From assembly GCA_905178155.1 (NCBI GenBank), contig CAJINV010000005.1:5411038-5475037 (forward strand): a DNA stretch of 64,000 nt, read 5' to 3'. Numbering within the stretch: the stretch's first letter is position 1; each line of letters begins with the position of its first letter. The notes under the pieces were generated by a model, which did no database searches, was not told the DNA's origin, and worked only from the letters and a program-made list of their open reading frames with translations. This DNA comes from Amoebophrya sp. A120. Taxonomy: Eukaryota; Protista; Dinoflagellata. The position numbers and the translations under genes were made by a program. Positions 1 through 59,987 of the stretch are shown here, piece after piece.

Positions 1-3000
1 CCACCCGACGGATCTCGTGCCGACTAGGACCACCCTGGAAGTAGATGGTCATCACGCCCAGGATCTTCATACAACTGGACGAGATGACGCAGTTCCTTCT
101 CGTCCTCGTCTCGTCCACGATGAAAATGCAAACGACCCACCACAGGACGAGCTCGTCCGTGCAAGAGCAACTGGCTCTGCCAACAGCGCAAGAAACAACT
201 CCAACTCGTCCACTGGCGGAACCCGAACCGGGGGCAACGACGTTGTGTCTTGTTGTTCTACCGCTCCGGTTGCGCTGCAGCTGAAACAACAAATTCATGA
301 CGGGGATGAAGAAAATGTTGACGAAAGAAAAAATTCTACGGGCTTTACTGGAGGTGTAGTTGACACCAGAAGTAATAGAAGTCTTCCTGATCATCATGAC
401 CACCCCGTTCATCCTACTTCCGGCGCGAGAACATCGACCAAGACGACGAGCGCCACGACCACGCCCTCTTCTATCCTGACCAAGCTGCGGCTTTTGAACG
501 CTTTCCTGGTGCGGCGCTTTCTCGTGTATCCACAGTAAATATCCCGGACACGTACATCAAATGTGGTTTCTGCATGACAAAACTTGCCTCCAATCCTAGT
601 GCAGCATGACAAGCTGGGCTCCGCAAGGTAGCGAAATTTGTCATGCATTTTGTACATGTTGTACAGGAAATTTACATCGCATATCGTGGTCCAGCTGCGG
701 CGAAAGAGACGGATTCAGGTGGTGTACAACTGTCTGAACCACTGGAATATCGAGTGCAAATATGTCTGGGTCTGGAAGAGTGCCAGGTTTGTCATGCAGG
801 TTTTCCATGGCCACCCATGAGGGGTGGTATGTAGGACATAGCACGACAGATTCTGCGAGAGTTCAATCATGCCTGGTCTGCATGAGAAACTACTGCCTCT
901 CGATTAGGTCAAAAGCGCACAGCTTTTGGCAATCATGCAACACAGATTTACTTTACATGATTTTGATTCAGATTTAGCATGACAAGTTGCACCCTTTGTC
1001 TGCTTCCAGACCCAGACACATTTGCATTTGATATGGAAAATTCTCGGCAGGCTGATGCTTGCGTTCAAGCAGTATTACGCCAAGATCCGCAGAGTTCAGT
1101 CCTGTATCCTGTGCAAGAGCATCGTATTCGTATAAATGCATTATAAATTTTCTCAGCATGAGAAACAATAACAAATGAAACTTGTAATGCGGATTGACTT
1201 TAAGAAAAAGATTTAAGTATAATGCATCATGACTGCAATTAGTACGAGTACGTGTGCGATACTTTTGCGCTGCATATCCTGGTGGAAGGAAGACGCCGGG
1301 AAAAAACTAGCGGCGAAAGTCCAACGGCTGACGAATCGGTGGACCAAAATCGAGTACCAGATCGTGGAAAAAAAGTTGCTGGCTTTAGAAGACCACAGTG
1401 CGCCGGGAGCTAGTACAACTACAGTTGCGGGGGCGGATCATATCGCAAGAAAAAACTTGTAATGCAGAAACTGTATCTCAGAAGTGTTTGTCTTGCTACA
1501 CATGCAAGCCAGGTGATGTTTAGCTGTGTTTTCCCTTAGGGACCTCGCATGGCAAGTCTTCCCTGTCATGTAGAGCAAACTTGTAATGCAAAACTTGCAA
1601 AATTCCTACAGTGAAACACCTTTTTCGTACGATAGATCGAGGCCGAGTGAACTACAAACAGGGCGGCGCGACGAGGAGGAGAGGGAACAACATAAAGAAC
1701 TTGAACGGTAGTTCATCTGTGGCGCAAGCAAATCAAAAAAAGAACCCGATCCACCCGGGCAGCTGCAACTTCTTCTACAAGGACAACAACCACACCTCCG
1801 GAACTAGTAGTACAGTGAAGCTTCGCAATTTTAACACGTCCCTAGCTGGGGGCTCTACTGGTGGTCGTGCTGGTGGTATGGAGAGAAAAAAGTTTGTCAC
1901 AGTCACTACCTTGCAGGTTTTGCATTACAAATTTTTTCAGCATCACAGCTTTTCCCTGTATTGCAGAAACACTAGGGAAATGCCTTATGAAGTTTGGCTG
2001 TGATGCATTTTTACGCATGACAGAAAATTTTGTATTGCAAAAATGCGCATAAATGGTTGTGGCGAACTTTTTTTGTTTGATAGGTGGCGGCGCTGCAGGG
2101 TACTCGACGTCAAAAGCTGGCAACTTATCGACTTCATCCACCTCAGCGGTATCAACTGTAAAAATGTCTGGGTCTGGAAGAATGCAACTTGTCATGCTAA
2201 ATCTGAAGCATGCAAAAATCTGCGTTGCATGATTACCAAAAGTCGTCCAGATTTGACCAAGTCGGGAGGGAGTTGCTCATGCAGGATAGGCATGAGAGAG
2301 ATCGGACCGAATCTGTCATGCTAGGCCCTGCATTCCAGACCTCGCGGGTCATGGAAAAGCTGCATGACAAATCGCGCATTCTTCCAGACCCATACACTTT
2401 TACACTTGATAAGCGGTGCAAAGCAGCAAGGTTCAAAAGATGCTCCAATTGGATTTTTCGGAGCGCGTGCAACTAGCTATGGTCTCGGAGCCAGTCCGGA
2501 CGAAGTTTATCAAGCAGCACCTGCGCCAGCTGCGGACGTCCGACTACCTGCCGAAAGTGAAAAACTGGGAGAAGGTATCACGAAGAAAAACCCCCCTTCC
2601 CCATATCAATGTCAGCTTTTTTGTCATGCTAGAAGGCAAATAAAGATGCGGACTCACTACAACTGTAGTGCTTGGTGGCGTGGGAAAGTAAGCCTTGCAG
2701 CTTCAGCATGACAGGAGACAGTGGGGAGCAGCATCATGGCAAATTGCCTGCAAGAAACGAGGCCACGACTGCGGCTCTTGGCCTTCTAGCAATACAAGTC
2801 GATTTGTGTATTCTGATACAGCATCACAAATTTCGTTTTCGATATGGGGAGGTGGGGGGAGTTTTCCTTGCAATAGAAGCTGTTCAAGATCTACCAAGAG
2901 AAGTTGAAGAGCTGGTGCGAAGATCGTATCCTGTGCAAAAGTGTCGTATTTGTATTGCAGTCATGCATTACAAATCTTTTTCTATAAGGAAATCAGCATT

Positions 3001-5992
3001 ACAAACTTTATTTCTCATCATGCTGAGGAAATTTGTAATGCAGTTATCCGAATGCGATACTTTTGCAATTCATAGATCGGAAGGCGATTCAATTTCTGCA
3101 CCAGATGCTCTCCCCGCCCGCTGCCAGCTCTGTTTCCTCGAGCGGCGGCGGTGGTGGTAGAAATAACAGCGCTCCTGCGGCTGCTGGAAATAGTACAAGT
3201 GGCAAAACAAGCAGCAAGACGAGCAATAGTACTTCTTCTGGCGCAGGCGCCAGGGCAGGACCGCACCGACGCCAGTCTTTGATCGAAATGGAGTACTTGC
3301 ACTCGAAGCCGTATCCCCTTCCCACCGGGTGCGGCTTTTTTAAGCCAGAATTCGCCATTTCTGACGAGACGTTGAACCAGTGGATTATATGCATTGCAAA
3401 AGTAAAAGTATCGTACCAGTATGAATAGCATTACAAATTTCTCCAAGAGAAAAAATGCAATTTGTCATGCTGGACAAGGTAGAAAGGTAGACGTAGATGA
3501 TTTGTAATGCATATGCCTGCCATTACTACGAGTGCGATACTTTTGCACAGGATAGATTACCAAATGTCGGAACGACATGCACGGAAACACCATCACGAGC
3601 ATTACCCAGGCGTGCTCGAAGTCCTTCTACGGGTCTTCCTCTCGTTCCTCGTGGCGCCCGGGCAGTTATGCTGTGCAACAGTATCGTACTACTTGCAAAT
3701 ATGCATGACAAATATTTTTCCTAGCGAAAAGAAGCATTACAAATTCCACTTTCCTTTTTGCCAAAATTTGTCATGCATTTTTCATACTAGTGCGATGCTG
3801 TTGCAATGCATAGCAGTACTTCTAGAACAATTGGGAGCTGTAATTATCATGGGGCGGCTGCTGGTACGTCGTCTACGAAGGATGGAAAACCGAACGAAGA
3901 AGATTCTTCCCCCTCCTCCGCGGCCTCCAGCACGTCTTCAGACGATTCCGGCAGCAGTTCATCCGCGCCAGAGGATCCTGAAGACTCGGACGATCCTTCC
4001 GACGCAGAGCAGAACATCGCCGCAACTTGGTCGGGGAGCAATTGTATTAGTGATAAAAATGTACAACTAGCCCTCAGAGCTGCAGCGCCAGGGCCCGGAG
4101 CAGGAGCTGCAGCCGCATCTTCTGCGGCAACTGGTTATCCTAAGCAAAAACGTCCCCACCCCATAGTCAAGTTGGGAATCTAGCAACACAAATCCCCAAG
4201 TTTTGGGAGCTGTGCGTGACAAGTTTCCCTCTGCAGTGTAGTGCTGGTCGGCAAGGGAAGCCGCATCAGAAAGCCATTTTCTCATCCCGTTTACAGCATT
4301 AGAAATTCCAAAACACGATTGGAATTTAGAAATGCCTCCCCTGGAGCTGCGCATTACAAATGTTCCTGTCAGTGCACGACATTTGCTTTTGCATGACAAC
4401 TCCGGGGTGCGGACGGGTTTACTTCGGATACTACTGGCGGTTTTTTTACCGCAGGTGGCCGTGGACGAGATCCAAGTGCAGCGGCTGGGTCTATGCACTG
4501 CAAAAGTATCGTACTCGCATAAATGCATGACAAATGTCCTCAGCATGGGAAATGAAATTTGTAATGCTGCTTCACCTTAAGAAAAAGATTTGTAAGGCAT
4601 GACTGCAATACGAATGCGATACTTTTGCACAGGATAGGGTCGTCACCTGCTCGATTTTCCTCGCCGTCGCCACTCTCGATGTTGGGGGCGAACAGCATCG
4701 GTGCGGGGGGAGGGGTATGAATTGCAAAAGTATCGTATTCGTATAAATGCATTACAAATTTCCTCAGCATGACAAATAAAATCTGTAATGCTAATTTGCC
4801 TTAAGAACAGGATTTGTAATGCATGATTACAATACGAGTACGATAGTTTTGCACAGGATAAGGGGGTAGTGTCCCGTCGCCGTCGAACAAGCTGCCCGGC
4901 GCCATGGGACGCATGTTTTATCAAAGTGAAAAAAGCCCCCACCCCATACTCAAAAGGCAATTTGTGTTGCTGGATTTGTGTACACAAATAAACTTTGTAT
5001 TGCGTGAAGAGCTTGCCGGTATATTCCAAGGCCATTTGGGTACTACGCATCCGGCTTGCAGCTGCGCATGAGAAACAAGTCTGACATAGGCGAAAACGCA
5101 TCACAGACTGGCTGCACAATGCACCACATGGGTGCCGTTTGCCTTGTGCGCAAGACAAAGTCAATTTGTGGCCACATATCAGCATCACAAATTTCCTTTT
5201 CGATATGGGGAGGGGGGATTTTTCCTCGCGATATGTTTGCCAACCTCGTTCTCGCGGACGCGCACGACGGGACTGGCGACTTCTATGGAATCGTCAGGTT
5301 TGAAATCGACAAAGTTGCAATGATTTGCCGTGCACAAAATGGATGCCAGTTGCAACCCAGTTTCCAAGCGGCGCATGACAAACCTCGGCGATGCTTAGTT
5401 CCAGTTTGTCATGCTGTTTAGGCAAAGATGACTGACTTTCTCATGCTACTTTAGCGGCTCGAGCTCTAACCCCAAACAGGCTTACAATTGCCCTCACTTG
5501 CCTGCTCTGCAACACACGTATTTCGCGCTATGCATTTTATGCATCACAAAGTATTTCAAGAACTTTGTCGATTTCAAACCTGACGCTTCCATAACTTCAT
5601 CGCGACACGCCGAAGGCCGCGAGAAGACAGCATTCTGAACAAGAAGCGGGGCTTATCAACTGCAAAAGTGTCTGGGTCTGGAAGAGTCGGGACTTGTGAT
5701 GCACATTTTGCATGACCCGTGAGGTCTGTGATGCTGGTGCTAGCGTCACAGATTTTTTGAGACCTTCTTGATGCTAATTACGCATGAGAAATGCCCTCTC
5801 CGCGTGCCAAGAGCTGACTCCTCTTGCTGCTCATGCAACACAGATACTTTTAGAATCCGCAGACAGCATAATTACAAGTTCCACTCTTCCCGACCCAGAC
5901 ACTTTTGTATTCCATAGGGCTCCGGAGGGGAAATTTTACCGAACAACCTGGAAGAGGTTTTCCAGCAGGTCGAGAATGTTCACTTTGAATGA
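1..5992 (+). CDS. Gene 1 (5' partial), hypothetical protein with an IQ-like segment, split by 16 introner elements
   Basis: Removing each element plus 5 nt joins ORF 17-538 to a continuous frame ...RRFLVVQLRRKRRIQVVYNCLNHWKILGRLMLAFKQYYAKIRRVQSWWKEDAGKK...EEVFQQVENVHFE, TGA at 5990-5992. The frame is open to the left edge. The IQ-like call (IRRVQSWWK) is weak. Confidence 0.85.
527..683. mobile_element. Introner family G
   Basis: TAT…ATA, imperfect TIR, TSD TCGTG. Confidence 0.9.
748..1033. mobile_element. Introner family B (TIR …TGTCTGGGTCTGGAA)
   Basis: TIR, TSD TGGAA. Confidence 0.92.
1105..1276. mobile_element. Introner family A (TIR TATCCTGTGCAAAAGTATCG)
   Basis: TIR, TSD TCCTG. Confidence 0.92.
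1441..1634. mobile_element. Introner family F
   Basis: TSD GATCA/GATCG. Confidence 0.88.
1877..2082. mobile_element. Introner family F-like
   Basis: TSD GGTGG. Confidence 0.88.
2150..2411. mobile_element. Introner family B
   Basis: TIR, TSD AGCGG. Confidence 0.92.
2576..2875. mobile_element. Introner family E (TIR …CCCCCTCCCCATA)
   Basis: TSD GAAGG/GAAGC. Confidence 0.9.
2927..3074. mobile_element. Introner family A
   Basis: TIR, TSD GATCG. Confidence 0.92.
3388..3554. mobile_element. Introner family A (reverse orientation)
   Basis: TIR, TSD GATTA. Confidence 0.92.
3667..3812. mobile_element. Introner family A
   Basis: TIR, TSD GCAGT. Confidence 0.9.
4136..4430. mobile_element. Introner family D (TIR TATCCTGAGTAAAAACGTCCCCAC)
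   Basis: TIR; TSD CTGGT vs CTA-CTGGC. Confidence 0.85.
4492..4636. mobile_element. Introner family A (reverse)
   Basis: TIR, TSD GGGTC. Confidence 0.92.
4716..4860. mobile_element. Introner family A (reverse)
   Basis: TIR, TSD AGGGG. Confidence 0.92.
4919..5233. mobile_element. Introner family E
   Basis: TSD TGTTT. Confidence 0.92.
5284..5593. mobile_element. Introner family C (TIR TATGGRAGYGTCAGG…GAAATCG)
   Basis: TIR, TSD ACTTC. Confidence 0.92.
5654..5916. mobile_element. Introner family B
   Basis: TIR, TSD GGGCT. Confidence 0.92.
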
Positions 5993-14000: not shown

Positions 14001-16077
14001 AACCACCACAACAACAACCACTACAACAACAACAACCAGCACAACCACAACCACGACCACCAGTTGGAGGAGCTGTTGGAGCAGTAGCTCAAGGTAAGAG
14101 CGCCACATGAAATCAATGACGCCTACTTTTGTTCGTCGTCGTCCACGCTCAGCATAACTATTGCTGATTATCCCTTTTAATTTTTTTTTGAATATTCCGT
14201 GATGGTCATTCTCATTGTCATTGCCTAAAAGCGGAAGTAGGTGAGCATGAAGATGAATCGGCGCAAGGTGCTAGTCGTGCCCAACGAATAACTATGACTA
14301 CCAGGCACAGGCCTGGCGTCAGCATCAGCTTCTTCAAGTGGAATGCCAGAAGCGCCGAGCGCAAACCACAGACACTGCGACGAGCGCAAAAAAATCAATG
14401 ATGTGTTTTTTTGTTCGTCCACATCCAGGGGATTGCTGATCATTCTATAAGCTAGTCCTTTGCGGCGATAGTCCATGCCAACCGCGAAGCAACATGGTCA
14501 ACCTGCTTAGCGCGTCGAACCACAGACGAAGCACATGCCAGGTGGTGGATCATGTCGCAGCTTCGCGTGTCAGAAGGACTCTAGAGGCAGGCGAAGCTGC
14601 AGTAGCAGGAGCAGTATAGAAAAGAAGCAAGAACAGGAGCAGCAAAAAATAAAAGACGCAGATGTATATGATTACAACTTAAACCATAAAACACTACACA
14701 ACTAACAGTTGAAGGGCCACTTCCGCGACCTCAACGACGCTTGCGCCCGCCGAAACAGTTTTCGGTCGATGGCGCACTGCACTCGCTCATCAAGTTCGGC
14801 AGCCAGGACACTACTGCGGAAAAGCTCACAGAGGTGGTGAAGGCGTACTGTGATCAGTACAAGGGACTCGACAAGCTAGTGAAAACACTCCCGGAAGACT
14901 GGCCAGAAGCAGATAATGAGCAAGGCGCCCCCGCCCCCAACCCCGACGAGGACGTGAGGTGCGACCTCTTCTCTGGCTACTTTCATGTGGGGACGCTGTC
15001 GGGCGGCAAAAGCGTGGCCGGCACCAATAAAGTCCGGGCCCTGAAGCTGTACACTGAAGACACACGACCAGCACGAGCACCGGAAGCTGCCGAAGCGGTC
15101 ATTTTGGCGCCTGGGTGGGAGGTGATTGTGGCGACCCCGAGCGTGGTGGTGAACCAGAATTCTGTATCGACGGAAAAAATGTCTGCTAGATCTGGAAAGT
15201 TGTTATGCTAAAAGCGAACGGTAGGCGCAGGCCCACACCCAGTGCGATGCATCGTAAAGCCCAAGCGTGACAAACTTACGAGCTTCCATGTGTTGCGGAT
15301 TCCGCGTGATGCGCTGTCCAGTTTTTGCATGACAGATAAGTAGAGGACCTTTATTTTGTCCTCGTGCCCATGCGTCACGGATTCTCGAGTTGTCGTGTCA
15401 GACATGCATGAAAAATGTAGCAATCGTCTAGACCTCCCAGACATGTTTGCATTTGATAGTATGGCAGCGGCAGCGAATCATGGGAATGGTTCTCGCTCGT
15501 CTTCCTGAACTACGCTCCGAACGATCTGAACACGGTGCGATCCCAAATTTTGAACGAGAAGTTTAGCATCACAAACCCAATGGCCCAGCCCTTGCTGGTG
15601 CCCACCCGGGACATCACGTTCTATCAACTGTAAAAATGTCTGGGTCTGGAAGATTCTGACACTTGTCATGCACGTTTTGCATGAGCCACGGTGTCTGTGA
15701 TCCATACCCTAGCAATACAGATTTTTTGAGGGCTTCTTGATGCCTATTCCGAATGACAAATGCCTTCTCAGCGTAGCAAAAATTGCATTCCCTTTGGTAC
15801 TCATGCAATACAGATTTTTTTGGAATCCAAACGCAGCATCACAGGTTGCATTCTTCCAGACCCAGACACTTTTACATGTGATACGTTCGAAACTGTGTTG
15901 GTGAAGCCTCCTCCAGCTGCAACAACGGAAGCTGCACCAACGGAGCCTCCTCCTGCCGCAACAGCACAATCAACAGCAGCAGCTGCAGCAGAGCCTGCAG
16001 CTACACAACCTTCCGCGCCGAGCCAAACCAGGGACGCGGTTCCATTTTCAACTGGGACTCAGTATTTCGGGGACTAG
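8056..16077 (+). CDS. Gene 2, hypothetical Pro/Ala/Gln-rich protein; 8 phase-1 GT-AG introns plus 2 introners
   Basis: Exons ~8702-9530, 10011-10058, 10798-10878, 11168-11332, 11477-11596, 12197-12319, 13173-13235, 13791-14093, 14709-15164, then across elements 15165-15458 and 15622-15883 to TAG at 16077. All internal exons from 10011 to 14093 are 3n and open. The link to the 5' ORF at 8056 is uncertain. Confidence 0.65.
11907..14348 (+). repeat. Segmental duplication of an intron-exon-intron module (~11907-12580 vs ~13516-14348)
   Basis: Near-identical flanks CCACGAAGCTGCAT…TATACTATAC and GGTAAGAGCG…AGCTTCTTCAAGTGGA. Confidence 0.85.
13875..14060 (+). repeat. (CAA/CCA)n coding microsatellite, Gln/Pro tract
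   Basis: Directly visible in exon 13791-14093. Confidence 0.9.
15165..15458. mobile_element. Introner family B (diverged)
   Basis: Degenerate TIR, TSD TTCTG/GTATG, frame restored. Confidence 0.8.
15622..15883. mobile_element. Introner family B
   Basis: TIR, TSD CGTTC. Confidence 0.92.
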
Positions 16078-19970: not shown

Positions 19971-22900
19971 CCGATTGCGATTCATGGAAGAAGTTTTGAC
20001 CTCATCGATGCATCTTCTACACGCCTCCACTATAGTGCAGAAGCAGAAGTGGTTTTCTTTATCTTCTGGATATTACTTGGCTCCTGTGGTTGCCCCCGGA
20101 CGGAGGAACCGAACATGTATGGGCTACTCAGCTGGATTATGACAGTGCGCAACTCGTCCCCCTCCCCGTCATTTGTATAGCATGAACAGCAAAAATACAG
20201 GCATCAGCAAGGATGCCGGTTTTGCATGACAAATTTGTACTGGAGTAGAGTGCTACTCGGGCTACGAGAACTTGTCATGCAAACAGTGCCAAGGGCCAAT
20301 GGGTGGATATGGATTGGGTATTTTGCATGACAAATGAGGGGGAGCAGGGAGAGTTGTGCATTGTCATATAATGGATGAAAAAAATTAAGTGGAAAAAGGT
20401 GAACAAAGAGCAAATTTGACTTTCTCCGATACCGATCCCTGTTGTAGCAACTTCTCTTGCATGATGAGAGATGTTGATTCTATTTGCATGGAATGCAATG
20501 CGGTTTGGAAGTACGTGTCATGCCAAACACGTATTAAAGTATAAGTAGTGGTAGAGCAGGACTTCCTGTTGTTCTTGACTCGGGGGCACCCGATGTATTA
20601 ATTAATACTTCCCGCATGTTGAAATAAAGATAATTGATCTTGCATGAATAAAATGATATTATTTATACAAATTCTTTCCCTTGAGATGATTATTCCCACT
20701 GTTGAGGCTTGTTCCATAACTGCTTTTTGAAGTTTCTTTGCTGCACTTATGCATTGCAAATATGTCTGGGTCTGGAAGAATGCAACCTCTCTTGCTAAAA
20801 AATCTGAATCATGCAAAAATCTGTGTTGCATGGTTGCCAAAAGTCGTCCGGCTTTGACCAAGTCGGGAGGGAGTTTCTCATGCAGGATAGGCATGATAGA
20901 GATCGCGGAGAATCTGTCGCGCTAGGTCCTGCATTCCAGACCTCAAGGGTTATGGAAAAGCTGCGTTACAAATCTCGTAATCTTCCAGACCAACACATAT
21001 TTGCAATTGATAGCACTTGCTCGATCGCGAATTGGGATGGGTATGCAGGCTGCCCCTTTGTCATCTCCGTTGCCGGTGTGTCCGGTGGCAGTTTGTTGCT
21101 TCTGATTGCAGTCGTGCTGCGTTGCACCGCCTACGTGACCGAAACGACTACGGTCACGACAGTTACGCAGGGCAGTTCCGGCGGGGCGACTACATATCAA
21201 GTGAAAATATGTCTGGGTCTGGAAGACTGCATGTTTGTCATGCTTGTCTGGCATGGCTCTCAAATCTGTCATGCACGTTACCCAAGAGCGCAAGGCGATT
21301 TTTCTGACATTCAGAAACGCAGTTTGTCATGCAGAATAGGCAACACTTAGAACAAGCTCAGAAACCTGTCATGCTGAGCCAGCACCACTTGTGGCCTCCT
21401 CATGGTGCGCCACCCAGCATCACAAGTTTCCAGACCCTGACATATTTTCATTTGATACTACAAGCGCTAGTACAACTGAAACAGACGACGCAAGAACGTC
21501 ATCAGAGGAGACTAGTAGTGAAGAGACTGGCTGTATCCTGAGTAAAAACGTCCCCACACCAGAGTTGTAATGCAGATTTGCAAAGACAGGAAGACTTGTA
21601 ATGCGCATCCCCATGAGAGCCATTTCCAATCGTGTTTTGGAATTTGTGATGCTGTGAACAGGATGAGCAGATGAATCTGTGACGTGGATGCACTTGCTAA
21701 CCTGCACTACACTGCAGAGCGCAACTTGTCACGCGTGACTCACAAAGCTCCTAGGTTTGTGTTGCAAAATCCCCATCCTGACTCTGGTGTGGGTACGTTT
21801 TTACTCAGGATAGCGTGGAAGGGCGGCGCGTGCGTGGGGGTTTTGTTCTGGTTTGCGGTAATTACCGGCGTAGCGCTTCTCGTCGCCGCAATGGCGCACG
21901 GCGCATTTTTCTGGGTGCCCTCCGTCTACCAACCACCGAAAAGGTATGGAAGCGTCAGGTTTGAAATCGTCAAAGTTGAAATAGTCTGTAATGCATAAAA
22001 TGCATGACCCGACCCCGAGGCACGTGTGTTGCAGAGCAGGTAAGTGAGGCCGATTGCAAGCCTGTTCGGGGTTACAGCTCGAGCTGCTAAAGTAGCATGA
22101 GAAAATCACTCTTCTTTGCCTAAACAGCATGACAAACTGGATCTAGGGACCACCGAAATTTGTCATGCGCCACTTAGAAACTGGATTCCAACTGGCAACC
22201 ATTTTATGCATGACAAATTATTTCAACTTTGTTGATTTCAACTCTGACACATCCATAAAAGGCGAACGACCCATGCCGCGATGATCCCCGCACTGGGGCC
22301 GGCGGTCAAGGCCAAAAATAAAGCTGTTAGCACAAGAACCAGTGATGGCGCAGCAGCAGAAACCGCGCCGCCCCCTGGTTCGCAGCAGGGGGGTGACGCC
22401 CCTGCAGACGTGGATATTATTTCCGAAGATATCGAAAGGAAAAATGCCCCCTCGCCATAATATCAAAATGGAACTTCTGACGCTGAATTTGTGTACGCAA
22501 ATACGCTTTGCATTGATGCAGGAATGCATTGCGTTTGCGGCCAGATCTCCAACCTAGGTAGGGGCTTTTGGGTCCTCTAGAAGTTGTTCAGCATTGCAAA
22601 CGGCTGCCCTGTTTTAGGCCCAAGAACAGCATGGAAAAGCGCTTCCATAATGGGACGCACAAGCTTCTGCCCTTGTCTTCTTGCAAGACAAAGAACGTGA
22701 CTCGTGGCCACAAATCAGCAAGAACGCAAATTTTCGGAAGCTGCGTGCCTTTTCAAGATGGGGACGAGGGGGAGTTTTTCCTTTTGATAGAAGGGGGGCC
22801 ATCTTCTTCAACTATCAAATGTAAAAATATCTGGGTCTGGAAGATTCTGAGATTTGTCATGCATGTTTTGCATGACCCAGGATGTCTGTAATGCACGACC

Positions 22901-25900: not shown

Positions 25901-28900
25901 CGGCGGCCAACTACCTATGAAAGCCTCAGAATGGAAATCCTCAAAGAGGACATACTTTGTGATGCATGAAATGCAAGGCAAAAAAGACTGGATTGCAGAG
26001 GACGCAATGGAGTCCGACTATTGTCCTGCTAGGGGTGAAGAATTGGGCTGCTGATTAGCACGACAGAAGGGCACCCCTTTGCTTAACTAGCATGACAGAC
26101 ACGTTTTGAATGCCCGGGAAATTTGTCATGCGCCGACTACAAATGGCGCTTCAACTGGAGTCGTTTTTTTGCATTACAAATTATTTCCACTTTGAGGATT
26201 TCCAACCTGAGGCTTTCATACTACCCTGGTGCTCTTGCGTCGTCCGGGGGCGCCGCACAGTTTCTGCCCCCCGCGCGTCGTCCGCCGCCACTGTCGCCCG
26301 AGGAGCAAGAGAGGCTGGCCGCGCTAGATCGCGCTAAGGGTACCAGCTCTCTGGCGAAACGCAGAGCCGCGCGTGCGAATAAGAGCAGTGGGTCCTTGGC
26401 AATGGCCAACATGGTGCAGCTGGTGGCGAACAACAAGCAGGCAAATAAGACGCACAACGTGCAGGCGGAGGACAGCACGATCGTCAACTCTGCAGCGAGC
26501 ACCGAATTATCAAATGCAAAAAATTGTCTGGGTCTGGAAGATTGCGAGATTTGTCATGCTTGTCTGACATGACCAAAACGTCTGTGCTGATGCGTGTCCA
26601 AGTAGAGACCCTTGTGCCTGTCATGCAAAAACGCAGTTTGTCATGCGAAAAACGCAACACGAAGAAGCGCAGATATTAATTTCTCATGCTTGTCTGTGCA
26701 TTACAGAGCGTTCACCATTCCCATCGCAGCATTAAAAGTTTCCAGACCCAGACATATTTGCAGTTCATACGAATCCCCAACGCGCAACACACAGCAGCTC
26801 GACAGCAGCGTGGTACATATCAACTGCAAATATGTCTGGGTCTGGAAGTAGAGTGCGAACTTGTGATGCGCATTTCACAACACATAAAAATCTCTCATGC
26901 ATAGGCAGCAAAAGCTACCCACTCTCTGGCGTCACCAAAATGTGGCATTTGTGGTCTTGCGGATTCACGGCATTGCGGAAGCTTCTCGAAATCTGTGACG
27001 CTAGAGCTTCCATGCCAGACCTTATGCGTCATGCAAAAGCAGCATGAGACCCAGACACACACATTTGCATTTGATAGTACAGCCGCAGGATCAACAACAT
27101 AATCCGGTTGAGCACGAACACGTAGAGGGCTGGCACAACGCCGCCGCCGGGCGAGTGCCAGAAGGAGATCAAATCATATTAACCCCCCGCGGCCCACCAG
27201 GAGAAGCTGAAGCAGAAAGAGATGAAAGTGAAATTATATTCACCGGCCTCGCAGCACCTGTAGTTCAAGTCTTCACTTTGGGTGCGCTGTATTGCATGCC
27301 AAAAGCAAAAACGGCACTGCGCGCGCCAGCACTGACAGGGGCTGCAGGCTGCCCTTGCATAGGGCGCAGAACTACTGTAGGCCCCCTTCGCACCTGCTCG
27401 CGCGCTCTGTTAGTTTGAATTGCAGTGGCTGGCGCGCTCTGCTTTGTTTCTGTGCTGAAGCAAAACAATGATGGGCGGTAGCGGGGTCATGGGGTGGGGG
27501 AGGCGGGGCTTTCTCTTGAATGATTCACGGACGGGCAGCGCTTTTTTGCCTTTTCTGAGGATATTCATTCGGGAGCCGGCTCTTGTTGTGAATTTTCGCA
27601 AGAAGCGCTGCTTTTCTGGATCCCGATTTTGAATCATTCAGCGGCCGGGAGCAAGCGGCCGGGCCTTGCTTCCCTTTTTTTTGCCTCTAGGCACACACGC
27701 CGCAGGCCTGGGCAGAAGCCTGGCGCACACGCTGCCAGATTGCATTCCAGGCGCAGAACTACCTTGCTTACCGTCTAGGTATGGGGTGCGTCTTGTTCTG
27801 AGTTGCAGAACGAAGAAAAACCTTGCAGGCGGCGGCAACGAAGCCAAGGCGGGCACGTAGCTGCGCGCGCAGGCACGTAGCGACGCCTATACTTCTTCTC
27901 CCCGGTGCTTGTTGGCGCAGCTACGATGCGCCGATGAAACAACGCGCAACTATTTCCGCGTGCCGGAGGCGGAGGCCGCTGCCACGCCTCAGACCTCCGC
28001 TGGCGCCGTTGGCGTTGCTTTTTTTGCCGCGCCTGCTCGGTAGTTGCTGTTTTGAAACTCAGGGCGTGGCTGTTGAACCCGGAAAACGTCGGCTTCGGTG
28101 TCGGTGACGGGCGTGTTTGAAAAAATCATTCTTCTGCAAAGTGTAAATATTCACGGCCGATTTTGAATATATTCAAAATAGATCCATGAAGCTAAATGGA
28201 CTTTGTCCCTTCATAAGAAAGAGATGAAAGTGAAATTATATTCACCGGCCTCGCAGCACCTGTAGGTGTAGTTCTCCCGACACCTGTCTTGCACGACCAC
28301 CATCCTTCTCCCCGACGTCTTCAACAGCGTGCTGAGGGGGAAAATCATGAATCATTGCTGCTGAGGAAAGCGAAAGGTGAGGAGCAAATAAATGATTTTT
28401 ATACTAGTCTTCTTGATGAACAAGAACAAGCAGCAGGAGGAGCGCATTCGTCGTCCTCTGCCGGCGGGTCTTCAACTACATCTTATGGAAGCGTCAGGTT
28501 TGAAATCGCCAAAGTTGAAATAATTTGTGATGCGTAATAAAATGCATAGCGCAAAATACGTGTGTTGCAGAGCAGGCAAGGAAGGCCGATTGTGAGCCTG
28601 TTTGGGGTTAGAGCTCGAGCTGCTAAAGTAGCATGAGAAAATCAGCCATCTTTGCCTAAACAGCATGCCAAACTGGATTTAGGCATCTTCGCCAAAATTT
28701 GTCATGCGCCACTTGGAAACTGGGCTCCAGCTGGCATCCATTTTATGCATCACAAACTATTTCAACTTTGACGATTTCAATCCTGACAGTTCCATACATC
28801 TCGTCGTGCTAGTAGTTCTCCTTGTTCCTCAGGTGGCCCTCGGAAGATGAACAAAAACTTCTACGTACTATCAAGATAAAAATCCCCCCTCGTCCCCATA

Positions 28901-30791: not shown

Positions 30792-32688
30792 ACTACAGCA
30801 TGGGCCGCGGCGGCATGGCAGGAACTGGAACTGGAACTCTGTGGGCGGGTACTAGATGAAACCACCGACCAATTATTATAACTTCTCAGTTTCATCGTCG
30901 TTGTCTTCTTCACCGGCAGCTGCTACGAAATTTCGTCATCTCGTGGTGTAACTACAAGATCGACGTGGACGTGGTTTGATTCATTCTCATTACTCCAAGC
31001 ACAGCCCATACAGAGGCGCACTACTTCCAGTTTTTCTTTTCGCCTCGTCTCCTCCATAAGTATACCTCGTTCTTATACACACGAAATTTTGATTTCATAA
31101 TCTCTCTATGTTTTTTTCCAATGTCTACGGTATCTACAGAACACGCATCACTAGCATACATGCCTTTTGGCTTTGATCATTTTTTAGCTGTGGCTCATGA
31201 ATGTGCTATCGGCGCAGCATGCACAAGCAGCCTTTTTTGGCGTTTTATCATTTTTTCACATATTACTCACTGACTTCGATTTTCAATTTCCAATCTTTTT
31301 TTATACCATTTGTTTTGCCTATATTTTCATTTTTGATTTATTCATCATTTAAAAGTCGCTCTTCTCTCTATCCAAGAAGTATTGAGTCGTTCCATCTGAA
31401 GATATCAAAGAAAAAAATTACGTGCAATACCGATACAAAAATACCGATAGTACGACTAAAAACCACAACTCCTAACGTGACAGTCGCCCGCATGTTTACC
31501 TCTGAGCAGTACGCTGACTGAATTTAGAACTAAAAGAAACACTCCATCGGCTTTTGCGCGTTGCTGCCGCCGGCCTGCAGCACGGGGCTGCTATTGCTAT
31601 TCAGCCCTGGCCCTGTATAGAAGATTGATGTTCTTGTTGTTCGCGAAATTGGACGACGGGCTAGGTGGTGAAGTTTAGTAAGACAATTTCAATTCCCAAG
31701 AAGAAGTCCAGCTTGCGAAATGCTCGGGAATTCTTGTACCGGACGAGCATAAATGGGTCGTCGATTTTTGCGATGATTCGCGTACCGCTCGTACGATCCT
31801 GCAATATGATCCTCCAACGTAGCGGCCTAGATCGTCATATGAAGTTTGATGTGGTGTTGGCCTCGTCGTCGTGTGGTCGTGGAGATTGACTGATTTCGAT
31901 GTTCCCTACTTTTTAGTCATTTATGCGATTGAGAATGAAAAGGTTACGACGACTGCAACAAGGGTCACGATGAAAATGTAGGTTCGTGACGATGACTGCA
32001 ACAAGGGTCTGCTATAATTTCACGAAGATCCACTTCAATATCAATTTGTAAAAAATTTCGGGTCGCTCGTTGTACAACTCTCGTGTGTGTTATACCAATT
32101 TTTGATGAAGATGATCTGCTGGGTGCTGGAAGGCTATTTTTAGATTGTGTTTCCTCGTCGTGAAAAGAATTTCGTTTTTCATCGGGAGTTCTTGCACCAT
32201 AATTGATATAGATTTGCCGGCCACCTCGGAACTAACAATCCAGTGAAAAATATTTTTTTGCGATGGACCACAAGAGGAAGCCGTGGTTCGCGTTTATTTC
32301 GAGAAGCGAAAAATCGAGAGTAGCATTGATCTTCGTCGAGACTCATGAAACATTATCAATGGTGGATATGTGGATCATGTTGTTGATGTAGGTATAGGTT
32401 CAGGTCAGTTGTAATGCCATTGGTTGCATTGCGAGGCTTGTCCTTGTGTTTTTTTCAAGGGACCACGGGCCTGAAAATCAAAATCTTCGGAGTTGTGGAA
32501 ATCGTGCTGCCGTGTGATGGCCAAGCTCCTTCGGATCTCCATGAAGATCGTGGGAATATGTAAAACGAAACTCGTACATTCATAAGGCTAAGGCATAGCA
32601 CACGACGAAGGAATTCCAATTCGCAGTTTGCGTCCACGACCACGACCACGGGGGCGGGAGTGGATTCTGATCAACAACATCAAGGAAA

Positions 32689-35600: not shown

Positions 35601-38600
35601 TGAGGAGCGTAGGCAGCTACAACTGGAGCTTGAACAAGCTACTTCATCAACTCGGAAGATTTGGACACCGCTTTTCGATTTGAAACTCCCCGGGGCGAGG
35701 GAAACAGCAGCTGTGAGTAGTACTAAGAGTGGTCGTGTTGAGCTGTTTCAACATCTGAATGTTGGCGCTTCTACTTGTAGGACGAAGGATTCGTTGAAAG
35801 CAGGGCAACAAGAAGGAGCCAAGAAAACCTCGTCAAGTAGAGTGGGGGGTATGAAGAACGCTTACGGGCGGGGCGACAAGGCAAATTCTCTTTCTCAAGA
35901 ACACGATAGCACTCCTGCTCCAGGTCGTTCAGGTGCGGCTGAAACCGGAAACATCAAAGCTAGCGAGGTGGACGACGACGCAGCTGCTGGTACAACATCA
36001 ACATCTTCTGCAGCACTTGTACTTCCAGAGGCAGCAAAAATACAACCGACGCACGCGAAGGAAAATAAGAATTGCATGACGGTGATACACGCGGAGGATG
36101 TGGAAATTTTGGTAGAACAAGATGAGTTGGATCTACTTCGTCCGACGACCTCAGCGCAGCAACGACAACGAGAAAGGTCGACGAAGCCGAATGGTAAGAA
36201 GGTGACTACAACCACCACGACCATTATCAAGCACCCGCGGGTAACGCCGGCTTCGAAGGTTATGAAGATGCAGCTAGGAGGAGCAGGGTATGGGTGTGTC
36301 AGGATCGAAATCGACAAAATCGAAAAACTTGTGATGCATAAAATGCAGGGCACTGAAGGCGTGTATTGGGGAGCAGGCAAATGAGACCGATTGTAAGCCT
36401 GTTTAGGGGTATGCAATGTGCTGCCAGAGAAGCATGACAGGAGCCGTCTACTTTGTCCAAACAGCATGACAGACTGGATTTGGGTGCTCCCGAAATTTGT
36501 CATGCGCCACGTGGAAACTGAGGCTCCAACTGGTATCGATTTATATACATCACAAATTTTTCGACTTTGTCAATTTCGATTCTGACACATCCATACAGGG
36601 GGCTCTACTAGTAGTGCCGCAAGCCGCACCGCCGCATCATCTTCTACTACGAGGACTCCGGGACCACGACGAGAGTTGTCGTCTTCGACGACCACTGCGA
36701 ATGCCAGAGCCGCCGCGCCCGCCCGGATTGCTACTTGTGGTGAAAATGAAAATGAAGAAGCGTCCTCTTCGATGGCCGCCCTGTTGTACTCTGCCAAGGG
36801 CGCACTGCTTCTAGAAGCATCATCAACAAGTGCAAGAACTTTAGTCACATCGTCCCCGGCCGCTGGAGGACACGATGACGATGAAGCACTTCTGACTTCC
36901 GGTAGTTCTGCTGCCGCCACTGCCGAGGTTGAACAGAAGGACCACTACCCGCCCAATACCAGCCTGAGCACGACGACCGGTGAAAACACCACAAGCGCCG
37001 GCGGCGCGCTGAAGATCATTCCTTCCGCGCCCGCCTTGACCATCTTCACGGCCCCAAAGCTGCAAATCCCGCATATCGCAAGAAAGAAGTGTTACAGTTA
37101 CACATTGTGTTGCAAGACCGGCAACACAGACAACCCTTCTCATGCAGGAAATGCTTGAGAGCCTCGCGTCCTTCCTGTTTTCCCTTATGATCTTCGCATT
37201 ACAAGTTTTCTCTGTGTCAAGTTTTCTCTGCCGCACAGAGAAAATCTGTGATGCAGAAACTCCAACAAATGTGTAACTGTTGTAACGCTTTTTTCTCATG
37301 ATCCCGCAGGCAAAGAAGCCAGTACTGAGCGGCTCTCCGCTGTTTCCGACGACCGCGCTGCATCAAGAGGGGACTACTTCATGTGGAGCAGAAGGAAAGG
37401 ACGGTGGTACAACGACGAGGGCGCTGACGAGTCTTTCTGCCGCGTCCAGTACTAGCGGACTCGTCGGACGATCAGCGAACTACCTTGGTGATGAGCGCGG
37501 ACTTTCTTCTAAAAACAGTAAGACGTCAACCTCGTTCAGTGCTGAGGGCAGTGCTCTCTTGGCACCCCCGCCGGTAAGTAGATCAACTAGCGTTCGCTCC
37601 TATGCATTGCAAATATGTCTGGGTCTGGACGAATGCAACTTGTGATGCTGACTTTGGATTCTACAAAAATCTGTATTGCATGAACAGCAAAAGAGGTCCA
37701 GTGTTTGCTACTGCGTCGAGAGGGCATTTCTCATGCGGTATAGGCATCAGGAAGCCCTCATAAAATCTGTGATGCTAGGGCATGCGTCACAGATCGATCA
37801 GGAGTCAACATGCAAAATGTGCATGACAGACCTGGCGCCTCCCTTCCAGACCCAGACATATTTGCATTTGATAGCCTCCCGAAGATGTTGTTCCCCACGA
37901 AAGCGGCAGCGACCGCCGTGCCTGTTGGCAAAAAACTCCTGTTGAATAATTTCAGTGGCACCAGCACCGCGCCGTCTCCTTATCAAATGTAAAAATGTCT
38001 GGGTCTGGAAACTTGTAATGCTAAAAGTGAATGATAGAAGCACTGCAATACGCAGCTATGCATGACAAATTTTTTGGCTGCTATGTCTTACGTATTCCGC
38101 ATGGCAGACTGCGTTTTTGCATGACAGGTAAGCGGGCCTTTTCGTGCCTATGCAACACAGATTCTCGAGTCATGCCAGACAAGCATGGCAGACTTGCATT
38201 CTTCCAGACCCAGACATTTTTACAATCCATACTCCTATGGGAGGTACAACAACTATTGGCCTGCTTGAGGACCCATCTGCAGGAAGGTCATCAACATGGA
38301 AGACGATGTCGTCCGTAGTTCTTGCGTATCCACACTAAATTTCCCGTACACGTAGTACAGATGCGATTTCTGCATGACAAAACTTTCATTCATCCTATTC
38401 AGCATGACAAGCGTCATGCTTCAAGTTGGCGAAATTTGTGATGCATTTGGTACGTCGTGACTGTGCAGGAAATTTGTATTGCATATTGCGCCATCACTGC
38501 TGGCGCAAGGGCAACAAGGCCAAGGGGACGTCGCTTTGAGAAGTGCTGCTCCTACTAGTACTAGAGCAACTGGCGTTCTTATTAAGTCCACGACCTCGTA

Positions 38601-42600: not shown

Positions 42601-42608
42601 CCGCGGGC

Positions 42609-42907
42609 CGGGGAGTTGGGGTCTTGGGAAGTTGGGGTTTTGGGGGAGTTGGGGTTTTCGGGGAGTTGAGGTTTTCGGGGAGTTGGGGTTTTGGAGGAGT
42701 TGGGTTTTTGGGGGAGTTGGGGTTTTGGGGGAGTTGGGGTTTTCGGGGAGTTGGGGTTTTCGGGGAGTTGGGGTTTTCGGGGAGTTGGGGTTTTGGGGGA
42801 GTTGGGGTTTTGGGGGAGTTGGGGTTTTGGGGGAGTTGGGGTCCTGGGGAGCTGGGGTCCTGGGGAGCTGGGGTCCTGGGGAGTTGGGGTTTTGGTGAGT
42901 TGGGGCC
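42609..42907 (+). repeat. G-rich minisatellite (GGGGAGTTGGGGTTTT[C/T])n
   Basis: Directly visible; G-tracts roughly every 8-9 nt. Confidence 0.95.
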
Positions 42908-43530
42908 CCCGGAGGAGGAGAAGGTCTGGACCCGGGCGGGGGAGGCACGGAGGCCCAACCTCCGGAGGAAGAGGTCCGGCCTCCGGAGGAGGAGGAGGCC
43001 CAACCCCCGGAGGAGGTGGTCTGAGGTCCGGAGAAGGAGGTCCGGCCTCCGGAGGAGGAGGAGGTCCAACCCCCGGAGGAGGAGGGCGGACCTCCGGAGG
43101 AGGAGGTCCGGCCCCCGGAGGAGGAGGAGGTCCAACCCCCGGAGGAGGTGGTCCGGCCTCCGGAGGAGGAGGAGGTCCAACCCCCGGAGGAGGAGGGCGG
43201 ACCTCCAGATGAGGAGGTCCGGCCTCCGGAGGAGGAGGAGGTCCAACCCCCGGAGGAGGTGGTCTGAGGTCCGGAGGAGGAGGTCGGGCCTCCGGAGGAG
43301 GAGGTCCTTCCAACCTCCGGAGGAGGAGGTCCTTCCAACCTCCGGAGGAGGAGGCCCAACCTCCGGAGGAGGAGGCCCAACCTCCGGAGGAGGAGGGCCG
43401 GTGTACGGAGGAGGAGGAGCTCCGGGGTCCGGAGGAGGAGGCCCGGTGACCGGAGGAGGTGGTCATGGTTTGGACGGAGAAGGCCTTGGGCGTGGGAGGA
43501 GGTGGTCCGGTTGGGGGAGGAGGTGGCCGG
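42908..43530 (+). repeat. G-rich repeat (CCGGAGGAGGAGGTCC…)n
   Basis: Directly visible degenerate tandem units. Confidence 0.9.
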
Positions 43531-43629
43531 GGTTTTTGTTGGTGCTCGTGAAAATTGTTGGGTATGAACGGTTTTCGTCCTTAATTACATTTCTCAACCC
43601 CAGCCAAGGAACGAAAATACGAATACGCA

Positions 43630-58500: not shown

Positions 58501-59987
58501 GGCAACCATGCAACGTTAGATTTTTGTGTGACCACCACCGACCCCCATGATTAAGCACATCAATCAATCAAACCAGGAGCATTATGCATCATTTTAATAT
58601 TTTAGACCCAGACACAATTCTTGCAATGCATACGGGCCTGCTGGAAACCGAAGATCCCGCGACGAACAAAATTGCTCCGGCTGAAGATGCAGCGGTAGTA
58701 TCCTGTGCAAAAGTAATATGATCGTACTCGTAGTAATTGCAGTCATGCATTACAAATCTCGTTCCCAAGGCAAATAAGCATGACAAATTCCAGTTGTCGC
58801 GCTGAGCAAATTTGTAATGCAATTATTATGACTAGTACGGTAGTACTTTTGCAATTCACATGCCGCGGCTGCAGCGCCCACGACAACTACGCGGAAGAGA
58901 AACCTTATGGAACTGTCAGGACTGAAATTGACAAAGTTGAAATAATTTGTAATGCAGAAAATGCATGACGCGAGGTACGTGTGTTGCAGAGCAGGCAAGT
59001 GAGGCCGATTGTAAGCCTGTTTGGGGTTAGGGCTCGAGATGCTAAGGTAGCGTGAGAGAATCAGTCTTCTTTGCCTAAACAGCACGACAAACTGGATTTT
59101 AGGACCGCCAAAATTTGTCATGCGCTACTTGGAAACTGGGTTCCAACTGGCATCCATTTTATGCATGACAAATTATTTCAACTTTGTCAATTTCAAACCT
59201 GACGCTTCCATAAACCTGAAATTCCTCGAGCGCGTGGCGCCGCAAGAAAAGAAGACGGCGGAGAAGGATATCCCAAGGAAAAACGTCCTCAACTACTTCA
59301 AGTTTATTGGGTTGTCGAGCATGACAAGTTCTAGTACGTGCTATTGACTTTCGGCTCGTAGTGGTCTAATAATCCTCTTGCTTCAGCTAGTAGTCGTGCA
59401 ATCGCAGTAAAAAGTGACTACCTTAACCTTACTCTGATTGTTCTAGCATGACAAAGAACTACTCCACCTCCCAGACTGGATTTTTAGAAATAAATGGCTT
59501 TCATGCAGCTGGGACTGCGCATCAGAAACGTTTTAATTATGCTTGCGGGTTTACAACGTGACGAGAACCCTGGGGAGGTGGGGACATTTTTACTCAGGAT
59601 TCCAGCGGAAGCGGAAGGACAAGAAAACGAGGGGAGCCAGAGCCAGGAGCAGCCCGCCAAGTATGGATTGCAAAAATGTCTGGGTCTGGAAGATTGCTAG
59701 GTTTGTCATGCACGTTTTGCGTGACGCGTGAGTGTCTGTGATGCATGACCTAGCATCACAGACAACTTTTAGAGGCTCTCCTAAATCAGGATGAGAAATG
59801 CTCTCTCCGTCTAACACAAAGAAATGGACTCGCTCTTCTTGTTGGTCATGCAATACAGATTCTTTTGGAATTCAAAGACAGCATTACAAGTTGCAACCTT
59901 GTTCCCGACCCAGACACTTTTGCAATGCATACCAAGCCGGCGAAAACAACGGAGCGAAAGTTCCTGGCCCCCCGAGGTGAGGAATAG
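46517..59987 (+). CDS. Gene 5, large hypothetical protein with a Gln-rich region; one GT-AG intron (46643-47006) and 27 introners
   Basis: MTMMSTQQ…TTWGM|RPQLVAR… stays in frame through all junctions, incorporating ORF-track segments 50968, 52432, 53251, 55364 and 55925, to TAG at 59985-59987. A GT donor at 59977 could extend it. Confidence 0.8.
47242..47459. mobile_element. Introner family F
   Basis: TSD ACACC. Confidence 0.9.
47791..48218. mobile_element. Introner family F with nested insertion (starts TAC)
   Basis: TSD CTAGA. Confidence 0.88.
47884..48073. mobile_element. Nested ~190-bp insertion within introner 47791-48218
   Basis: Interrupts GTTTGTCTTGC|TACACATGCAAG, which is contiguous in relative 1441-1634. 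TGTGGA…TCCACA ends plus an (ACGA)3 tail. Confidence 0.7.
48310..48618. mobile_element. Introner family C
   Basis: TIR, TSD CCTCC. Confidence 0.92.
48660..49008. mobile_element. Introner family D-like (starts TAC)
   Basis: TSD TCGTG. Confidence 0.88.
49056..49334. mobile_element. Introner family D
   Basis: TIR, TSD CTGTG. Confidence 0.92.
49414..49680. mobile_element. Introner family B
   Basis: Perfect ~30-bp TIR, TSD AGTTC. Confidence 0.93.
49930..50245. mobile_element. Introner family C
   Basis: TIR, TSD TCTCC. Confidence 0.92.
50493..50654. mobile_element. Introner family A (ends ATG)
   Basis: TIR, TSD AGATC. Confidence 0.9.
50712..50991. mobile_element. Introner family D
   Basis: Perfect ~32-bp TIR, TSD CATGT. 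Confidence 0.93.
51360..51860 (+). repeat. (CAG)n-rich coding repeat, poly-Gln with LLQ/ELW spacers
   Basis: Directly visible in a gene 5 exon. Confidence 0.9.
52040..52252. mobile_element. Introner family A-like (diverged)
   Basis: TIR TATCCA(G/T)TGCAAAAG, TSD GCCGA. Confidence 0.9.
52289..52509. mobile_element. Introner family F
   Basis: TIR …AAAAAACTGTGTAAGTGTAA, TSD GAGTT. Confidence 0.92.
52888..53092. mobile_element. Introner family F
   Basis: TSD AAGTT/ATGTT. Confidence 0.88.
53867..54130. mobile_element. Introner family B
   Basis: TIR, TSD ACAGA. Confidence 0.92.
54232..54471. mobile_element. Introner family B (diverged)
   Basis: TSD CGAGT. Confidence 0.9.
54521..54689. mobile_element. 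Introner family A (first of a back-to-back pair)
   Basis: TSD AAACG/AAACT. Confidence 0.88.
54695..54920. mobile_element. Introner family A-like (second of the pair)
   Basis: TSD AAACT/AAGAT. Confidence 0.82.
55004..55316. mobile_element. Introner family C
   Basis: TIR, TSD TTCCG. Confidence 0.92.
55581..55809. mobile_element. Introner family A-like (diverged)
   Basis: TSD CACCT/CACGT. Confidence 0.88.
56631..56879. mobile_element. Introner family J
   Basis: TIR, TSD GTCCG. Confidence 0.92.
56960..57300. mobile_element. Introner family L (TIR TAYTACRATGAAAAATGCCCCCA)
   Basis: TIR; flanks GGACC/CGCCG; frame restored by +5 removal. Confidence 0.85.
57448..57826. mobile_element. Introner family D-like (diverged)
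   Basis: TIR; flanks GAAGA/GTTCT; frame restored. Confidence 0.85.
57862..58177. mobile_element. Introner family E
   Basis: TSD GAAGA/GACGA. Confidence 0.9.
58238..58632. mobile_element. Introner family B (diverged)
   Basis: TSD CGGTC/CGGGC. Confidence 0.85.
58699..58860. mobile_element. Introner family A (ends ACA)
   Basis: TIR; flanks GGTAG/TGCCG; frame restored. Confidence 0.85.
58906..59212. mobile_element. Introner family C
   Basis: TIR, TSD AACCT. Confidence 0.92.
59269..59601. mobile_element. Introner family D-like (diverged, ends ATT)
   Basis: Flanks AAGGA/CCAGC; frame restored. Confidence 0.82.
59662..59931. mobile_element. Introner family B
   Basis: TIR, TSD CCAAG. Confidence 0.92.

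Follow-up and report, generated by a model that had tools for sequence, protein, structure and literature searches.

A shared internal motif set in helical phase within the TAT...ATA introner elements of Amoebophrya sp. A120

The dinoflagellate Amoebophrya sp. A120 has tens of thousands of introns in 1,954 families; the accessible text of the paper that describes them (Farhat et al., 2021; PMC7789003) gives neither a transposase nor a mechanism for their removal. The non-canonical introns of this organism have inverted ends that start with TAT and continue, after a few free bases, with a run of A, direct repeats of 3–5 bases and a mean length of 240, and its commonest 5' intron dinucleotides are all N-T (Table S4, PMC7789003). 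Farhat et al. reject general mobilisation by a transposase, for lack of a transposase in A120 (PMC7789003), and a family with inverted ends and integrase-like homology has been described in A120 (Gozashti et al., 2025; PMC12130899). The window analysed here, a stretch of 64,000 nucleotides of A120 DNA (GenBank assembly GCA_905178155.1, contig CAJINV010000005.1, positions 5,411,038 to 5,475,037, forward strand), contains 86 elements bounded by TAT...ATA. They share with the introners of these papers the TAT/A-run inverted ends, short direct repeats, a mean length of about 250 bp and non-GT-AG borders (PMC7789003, PMC12130899). In both papers the accessible text, figures apart, treats terminal repeats only, whereas the window elements have in addition an internal motif, a spacing rule for its copies and a helical phasing of these copies.

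Similar arrangements of short sites are known from mobile elements. In the Emigrant miniature inverted-repeat transposable element (MITE), the Lemi1 transposase binds subterminal repeats cooperatively (PMC1636448), as does the transposase of the hAT element Hermes, which generates an 8-bp target duplication (PMC10368747). As far as the text of these papers goes, they resemble the window elements in having short repeated sites within their ends, in either orientation and with a layout that differs from one end to the other; in Emigrant and Hermes these sites are bound by the transposase, as they may be here. Unlike both, the window elements share one 11-base site across unrelated interiors, with a 10.4-bp phase over the whole element, and unlike Hermes they have a 5-bp duplication. 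The transposon-derived introns of Fritillaria borealis and euglenids resemble the window elements in their terminal inverted repeats, target duplications at the borders and removal without GT-AG, but differ in border consensus patterns, and the accessible text mentions no shared internal phased motif (PMC11282704). The supplement of PMC7789003 contains no GCAT or TTGT in its text, and neither spelling of the motif was found in 12 of the 14 supplementary files of PMC12130899. No description of the motif was found in the literature searched, with subscription papers and theses outside its scope, and within that literature the shared motif and the whole-element helical phasing appear to be undescribed. 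The motif is real and strongly selected, and lies within a known class of elements.

The original prediction was that a motif, TTGT(C/A/G)ATGC, recurs on both strands of the elements and is rare elsewhere. Both parts hold: 88 copies occur on the + strand and 81 on the − strand, 167 of these 169 strict copies fall in the 86 elements (mean 1.7, maximum 6, in 200 dinucleotide shuffles), and the other two lie in the remaining 42,293 bp, where 1.1 are expected. The motif is thus about 100-fold enriched in elements rather than at background level. A strict copy is present in 78 of the 86 elements, and the form with T in the middle, TTGT-T-ATGC, has only two copies in the window. Copies discussed here are as follows.

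748..1033: Family 1 element, target duplication TGGAA; five sites, with centres at 46 (forward) and 98, 137, 194 and 234 (reverse); removed in a likely RNA contig
789..797, + strand: motif core TTGTCATGC, pointing inward from the left end of element 748–1033
977..985, − strand: motif core, GCATGACAA as written on the + strand, pointing inward from the right end of the same element
15566..15574, − strand: strict motif outside elements, at chance level
32409..32417, + strand: strict motif outside elements, at chance level

The inward-facing pair in 748–1033 is exactly as first described, and the motif itself is wider and more degenerate than proposed. A weight matrix gives AAA-YYTSTVWTGCD, with an 11-base core YYTSTVWTGCD; at 8 bits or more it finds 351 sites inside elements versus 13 outside, with at least one in each of the 86 elements. 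T at position 2, G at 8 and C at 9 are nearly fixed, the free middle base is A, C or G (T in only about 1–2% of sites), and the base 3' of TGC is hardly ever C. There are about four sites per element, and most elements have 2–7. The inward orientation claimed for two families, about 35–45 nt from each end, was found at 15 of 26 family ends, the other 11 facing outward; in 14 of the 15 inward cases the motif centre lies 36–38 or 44–47 bases in.

The elements were said to have unrelated terminal inverted repeats; it is the interiors that are mostly unrelated, whereas the ends of all families share one profile, T-A-T-S-V...A-A-A-A (172 window ends; 836 ends found by consensus). Masking of the motif and of the ends leaves 9 of 78 family pairs that outscore all 60 shuffles, strongly only for 1/3, 0/8 and 4/11. 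End positions 4–7 pair across both arms in just 40–60% of 419 elements and T stands at position 5 in 2 of 834 ends, which suggests that each end is read as sequence, and not only as a hairpin. A derivation of the end motif from the internal one, as a degenerate copy of it, was not supported, as the likeness is not significant (p=0.10).

Independent copies come from metagenome contigs. A family-independent three-site pattern (reverse, forward, forward), which occurs in 12 modules in the window versus 0 in 100 shuffles, was applied to 27 of 64 parts of these contigs and yielded 148 loci (L001–L148, one accession prefix) that contain the same element families as the window and have no exon DNA in common with it. 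The same pattern gave no matches in viral contigs and two among prokaryotes. An element finder recovered 74 of the 86 window elements and 512 further elements; the 150 elements matching the search pattern were excluded from the motif statistics and retained in the duplication clock labelled 'all'. The motif is carried by 355 of 362 independent elements (1,511 sites), with the same base profile as in the window. Family statistics rest on 13 families with at least 7 members and lengths of 109–321 bp, 50 single elements being kept outside them.

4749..4822, + strand: three-site module of a Family 0 element; a reverse site is followed after 34 bp by a forward site and after another 31 bp by a second forward site

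In the 13 family alignments, departures from consensus amount to 2.5, 4.5, 2.6 and 4.7% at motif positions 2, 7, 8 and 9, versus 22.3% at other interior positions and 28.1% at the free base. Three of the 56 family sites, each 16–20 bp from another site, are clearly looser; they were termed accessory post hoc and are reported separately from the main sites.

Among same-direction pairs within 75 bp, 373 of 965 are 31–33 bp apart and only 16 are 21–29 bp apart, and a direct pair at 30–33 bp is found in 10 of 13 families (null mean 2.15, maximum 8 in 20,000). Tandem duplication of a 31-bp unit was rejected, because the spacers within these pairs are dissimilar in sequence. Phase coherence over the 103 site pairs in the 13 family consensuses, computed with one fitted offset for reverse sites, peaks at 10.4 bp with a value of 0.54, versus a null maximum of 0.38 (best of periods 8–14 in 300 random layouts; p=0.003), and is 0.07 at 10.0 bp and −0.01 at 11.0 bp. 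It is above zero in 12 of 13 families. The peak stays at 10.35–10.4 bp when any one family is left out, and persists with the 31–33 pairs merged (p=0.005) and without the four related families 3, 6, 8 and 11 (p=0.002); 17 small clusters kept out of the fit show a coherence of 0.18 (p=0.015). A 16-bp lattice fits the reverse-to-forward gaps (R=0.73), but over all pairs it reaches 0.33 versus 0.44–0.48 for 10.4 bp, and was rejected. B-DNA has a repeat of about 10.4–10.5 bp per turn, and an RNA duplex one of about 11.

The 10.4-bp phasing, the retention of the motif while spacers diverge and the near strand symmetry of the sites argue for binding on double-stranded DNA, and the occurrence of the same motif and the same spacing rule in families that are otherwise unrelated argues that they have one factor in common. 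To this extent the suggestion that the motif binds a common trans factor is supported; the factor may be a transposase or a splicing factor. We consider it probable that the 11-base motif, in 2–7 copies on one helix face, is recognised by one DNA-binding protein with sequence specificity, and most likely by a transposase, or a cofactor of it, that would mobilise all families. The elements are short and non-coding, with terminal inverted repeats, target duplications and many copies, as are MITEs, and their motif copies are short repeats, several per end, in both orientations and conserved against their flanks, as are the transposase-bound repeats of Emigrant and Hermes. Each window element is flanked by a 5-bp direct repeat, and the five-base target duplication is exact in 63 of the 86 (416 of 598 elements overall); the 8-base target match expected of hAT elements is found in 2 of 598. 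A 5-base duplication fits staggered insertion of the DDE type.

A mechanism can be proposed from the end motif, the duplication, the phased and conserved site arrays and the removal described below. Several protein copies would load on the phased sites and bend the 110–320 bp element, and the bending would bring the two TAT ends together for a staggered 5-base insertion. Elements this short would need sharp bending for their ends to meet, and sites on the same face would add their bends. If only lineages that keep the array go on spreading, unrelated interiors would share the motif for that reason. After insertion the spacing would be unguarded and the site sequence partly guarded, most where inverted sites can pair, suggesting that the sites probably also help removal from the transcript.

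Several observations weigh against a transposase that acts through the motif. Neither the window nor the 148 loci, which amount to 583 kb including overlaps and to a tiny fraction of the genome, revealed a protein or an autonomous element (the foreign-looking inserts of six longer elements were not scanned against Pfam), and eight open reading frames of the window have no Pfam match. Putative transposases are reported in strain A25 only and none in A120, according to the accessible text of Farhat et al. (PMC7789003). The sites spread through the whole element instead of sitting at its ends, and no phase common to all sites and the element ends was found from family to family (R about 0.25), clustering relative to the ends being limited to the first inward site. 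Of the families, 12 is out of phase, with a coherence of −0.24, and 5 is only weakly in phase (0.11). On the transcribed strand, forward sites are slightly less damaged than reverse ones (62/698, 8.9%, vs 72/586, 12.3%; p=0.037, one of several tests), the background substitution being strand-symmetric. Furthermore, invariant bases of main sites changed in 127 of 5174 cases (2.45%), a ratio to neutral of 0.46 (95% 0.33–0.65), and such an apparently slower-than-neutral decay after insertion is not predicted by transposition alone.

The extent of this deficit depends on the clock. A target duplication dates the insertion, its two copies being identical at the start; mismatches between them affect 52 of 968 non-degenerate (5.4%) and 27 of 258 fourfold (10.5%) positions, which implies about 5% per neutral copy, and conserved non-motif columns give 5.5–5.9%. 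By these clocks the motif decays more slowly than neighbouring bases, and not at the equal rate that would have refuted the proposal. Near-perfect duplications alone differ by 2.9% and 8.5%, corresponding to about 3.6% neutral change with truncation correction; under this clock only sites predicted to pair are significantly low (1.8%), and sites without a pairing partner (77/2528, 3.05%) are not below neutral (p=0.15). Duplication mismatches contain more transversions than interior changes, suggesting some boundary error in the duplication clock, and the column clock includes older variation, such that both may be inflated by boundary errors or pre-insertion variation. With this dependence on the clock, the decay of sites in inserted elements appears to proceed at roughly one half to two-thirds of the neutral rate, and a real post-insertion constraint on the motif seems about evenly balanced against its absence, or somewhat better than that.

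Single-copy insertions occur at 2.6 per kb in motif cores versus 4.6–4.8, a deficit that gap placement may favour. The 31–33 spacers are not depleted of them (ratio 0.89, p=0.53), as is expected if geometry matters only while elements move. Damaged sites per element follow a binomial distribution, with no sign of a minimum site number, and a ranking by target-duplication damage, of low power, gave 118/1216 vs 50/430 damaged sites (p=0.27). As a separate observation, in the family alignments from the window and L001–L148, insertions within elements are more numerous than deletions at most lengths of two bases or more, with a preference for multiples of three (three bases, 258 insertions vs 4 deletions; six bases, 89 vs 6), though the elements leave the message.

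All 31 testable elements are absent from likely RNA contigs by their length plus five bases, at non-GT-AG borders; these contigs are those of runs X1–X4, from one sample and flagged 'RNA?'. One contig skips 16 elements in window positions 1–6200, with gaps equal to the summed length plus five bases, and between 20000 and 39900 all 15 joints among the matches listed have this value. The contigs of run X5 extend from exon into element and pile up very high on elements; the raw-read runs X9 and X10, with only 8 and 6 partial matches, were not used. Two junctions inform on the cut.

28868..29117, + strand: removed stretch of an element with a decayed duplication; cut 1 base before TAT and 4 after ATA, unambiguous
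37600..37877, + strand: second informative junction; same cut register, with one base of ambiguity

A cut one base 5' of TAT fits the N-T 5' dinucleotides listed for A120, and the border bases in the duplication counts show no drift towards GT or AG. When each element and five bases are deleted in silico, long + strand frames run through 81 of the 86 junctions, with frames of 1,765 and 1,868 codons among those that emerge. In the window and L001–L148, non-coding-like DNA accounts for 165 of 1,998 sampled points and for none of the 357 testable elements, of which 336 sit in open frames; a non-coding control group of elements is empty. Each of the 13 families includes insertions in both orientations with respect to the host gene, and elements are removed despite a single site orientation, reverse only (4136–4430, 30279–30619) or forward only (26818–27076).

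4136..4430: Family 5 element; six sites, all GCATNACA on the transcribed strand (reverse only); removed in a likely RNA contig
21534..21812: Family 5 element in the opposite orientation; five sites, all forward
26818..27076: Family 1 element; three sites of at least 6 bits, all TGTNATGC on the transcribed strand (forward only); removed, joint 26812/27077
28484..28796: Family 2 element (about 307 bp, long arms); sites 46F, 152R, 184R, 220F and 268R; removed
30279..30619: unclustered element; three sites, all reverse; removed, joint 30273/30620

The 5' T-A is kept better than the 3' T-A (4 vs 20 changes in 838 bases, p=0.001), and stems outside the motif favour G-U over A-C on the transcribed strand (183 vs 139, p=0.016); for these reasons removal from RNA is probably directed by the element ends and the overall hairpin. 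The motif may contribute, as stems or via a bound factor, and a role of the motif in splicing is suggested.

The readings that compete with a mobilising protein differ in where the motif would act. The factor might bind DNA and mainly serve the host, marking elements on chromatin and setting intron boundaries during transcription in place of the missing splice signals, such that only marked elements survive in exons. The post-insertion constraint would then be expected, and it appears by three clocks (5.4% and 10.5% for duplications and 5.5–5.9% for columns, vs 2.45% for the motif) and, under the column clock, for both site orientations; the confinement of elements to open frames fits as well, as does the failure to find U1 snRNA in A120 or A25 reported in the accessible text of PMC7789003. 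The reading is nevertheless doubtful, given that the clocks could be inflated, that partnerless sites do not fall below the stricter clock of about 3.6%, that spacing is unguarded after insertion and that damage shows no minimum site number. A general host DNA-binding or nucleosome-associated protein, exploited for access or protection and not for catalysis, would account for an array phased internally and not to the element ends, 10.4 bp being also the repeat of DNA on nucleosomes; such a factor should have its own sites outside elements, where the motif is at chance level, and the family lengths fit no obvious nucleosome unit, which leaves this origin of the phasing highly unlikely.

Action on RNA would come through stems of forward and reverse copies, such as were first suggested, or through an RNA-binding splicing protein. 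Elements do fold strongly (median z −7.5 vs mononucleotide shuffles), an in-register pairing with an opposite-direction site is predicted for 152 of 346 sites, and damage is lower at main sites that have a predicted pairing partner (49/659 vs 104/846, p=0.002), which together with the G-U excess in non-motif stems and the slight bias towards forward sites would suit this reading. A conserved RNA stem would show compensatory co-variation and G-U over A-C. At the free base, however, inverted partners agree no more than expected (609/1738, 35.0% vs 35.8%; symmetric pairs 196/507, 38.7% vs 37.1%), G-U is rarer than A-C in motif stems (42 vs 62), and families 5, 10 and 12, with all main sites in one direction, keep the motif without partner sites (19/677 invariant bases changed). 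Elements of either single orientation are removed, the period is 10.4 and not 11, and single-stranded RNA imposes no phase. RNA stems are therefore not supported as the reason for sharing the motif, although stems may contribute after insertion, and action of the motif on RNA as a whole is decidedly improbable. Still less probable, to the point of being very hard to maintain, is that the motif serves a modified spliceosome as its branch-point signal, or that it is left over without function from one ancestral element. The reverse form does contain T-N-A-C, like the branch-point consensus, often 40–55 bases from the 3' cut, and some families are related (1/3, 0/8, 4/11). A branch point would be strand-specific, required and best kept near the 3' end, but reverse sites there are among the most damaged (25/176 vs 62/698 for forward sites), a forward-only element is removed, and GT-AG introns at 8.6–14.7 kb carry no strict copy; a relic would not be kept 5–9 times better than spacers.

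The 86 elements are 112–428 bp long (21,707 bp in total), span 527..59931 and lie nearly all within + strand reading frames; for a few with decayed ends the limits were set by hand.

Family 0: 1105-1276, 2927-3074, 3388-3554, 3667-3812, 4492-4636, 4716-4860, 23144-23291, 34973-35098, 35185-35332, 39298-39449, 41934-42101, 50493-50654, 54521-54689, 58699-58861
Family 1: 748-1033, 2150-2411, 5654-5916, 15622-15883, 20748-21012, 22813-23074, 26818-27076, 37601-37873, 40847-41104, 49414-49680, 53867-54130, 59662-59931
Family 2: 5284-5593, 21945-22257, 24789-25095, 25138-25444, 25916-26220, 28484-28796, 34584-34890, 36289-36595, 38599-38908, 40135-40442, 48310-48618, 49930-50245, 55004-55316, 58906-59212
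Family 3: 21195-21457, 23337-23597, 24359-24612, 26508-26769, 34253-34518, 37981-38231
Family 4: 1441-1634, 25650-25866, 37074-37303, 47242-47459, 52289-52509
Family 5: 4136-4430, 21534-21812, 49056-49334, 50712-50991
Family 6: 20138-20368, 23683-23908
Family 7: 29150-29392, 56631-56879
Family 8: 527-683, 38327-38485
Family 9: 4919-5233, 22430-22789, 40474-40796
Family 10: 35374-35485, 41318-41429
Family 11: 1877-2082
Cluster 13: 2576-2875, 23972-24292, 57862-58177
Cluster 14: 56963-57300
Unclustered: 15165-15458, 28869-29113, 29430-29673, 30279-30619, 46724-46892, 47791-48218, 48660-49008, 52040-52252, 52888-53092, 54232-54471, 54695-54920, 55581-55809, 57448-57826, 58238-58632, 59269-59601

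Elements 54521–54689 and 54695–54920 stand back to back with a five-base gap (54690–54694). Element 46724–46892 is truncated and family 5-like, with a decayed right end, in a setting that looks like an ordinary intron or a non-coding stretch. The 428-bp element 47791–48218 contains an internal stretch of about 190 bases (47880–48070) that is not in its relatives and is probably a nested insert. In the metagenome loci, foreign-looking inserts of about 0.5–2.2 kb occur in otherwise normal elements with intact 5-base duplications (L052:476–2934, L038:448–1573, L014:433–1641, L026:6184–6998), and the insert of L052 has a 415-codon open frame on the minus strand. An Rfam search of the window returned no family. 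In other parts of the window, a gene at 8654–14700 has, by eye, a repeated family of GT...AG introns, with no strict motif copy and no TAT...ATA element found; at 42164–45200, GC-rich repeats are followed by a 479-codon frame (43585–45024) that has no Pfam match and by eye resembles a retroelement end; and a long CAG-rich coding repeat at 50980–51870 encodes a glutamine-rich tract.

The motif array provides a defined bait for finding the factor, with designed controls such as swaps of invariant bases and 5-bp versus 10-bp changes of spacers. The three-site pattern finds elements independently of their family, a single scan having led to 148 loci. On a more speculative note, and with rather low probability, one protein on phased DNA arrays might both spread the elements and, still on chromatin, tell the splicing machinery where the intron lies, so that the intron would be defined in double-stranded DNA. 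If the post-insertion constraint is true, the same code would link transposition and splicing.

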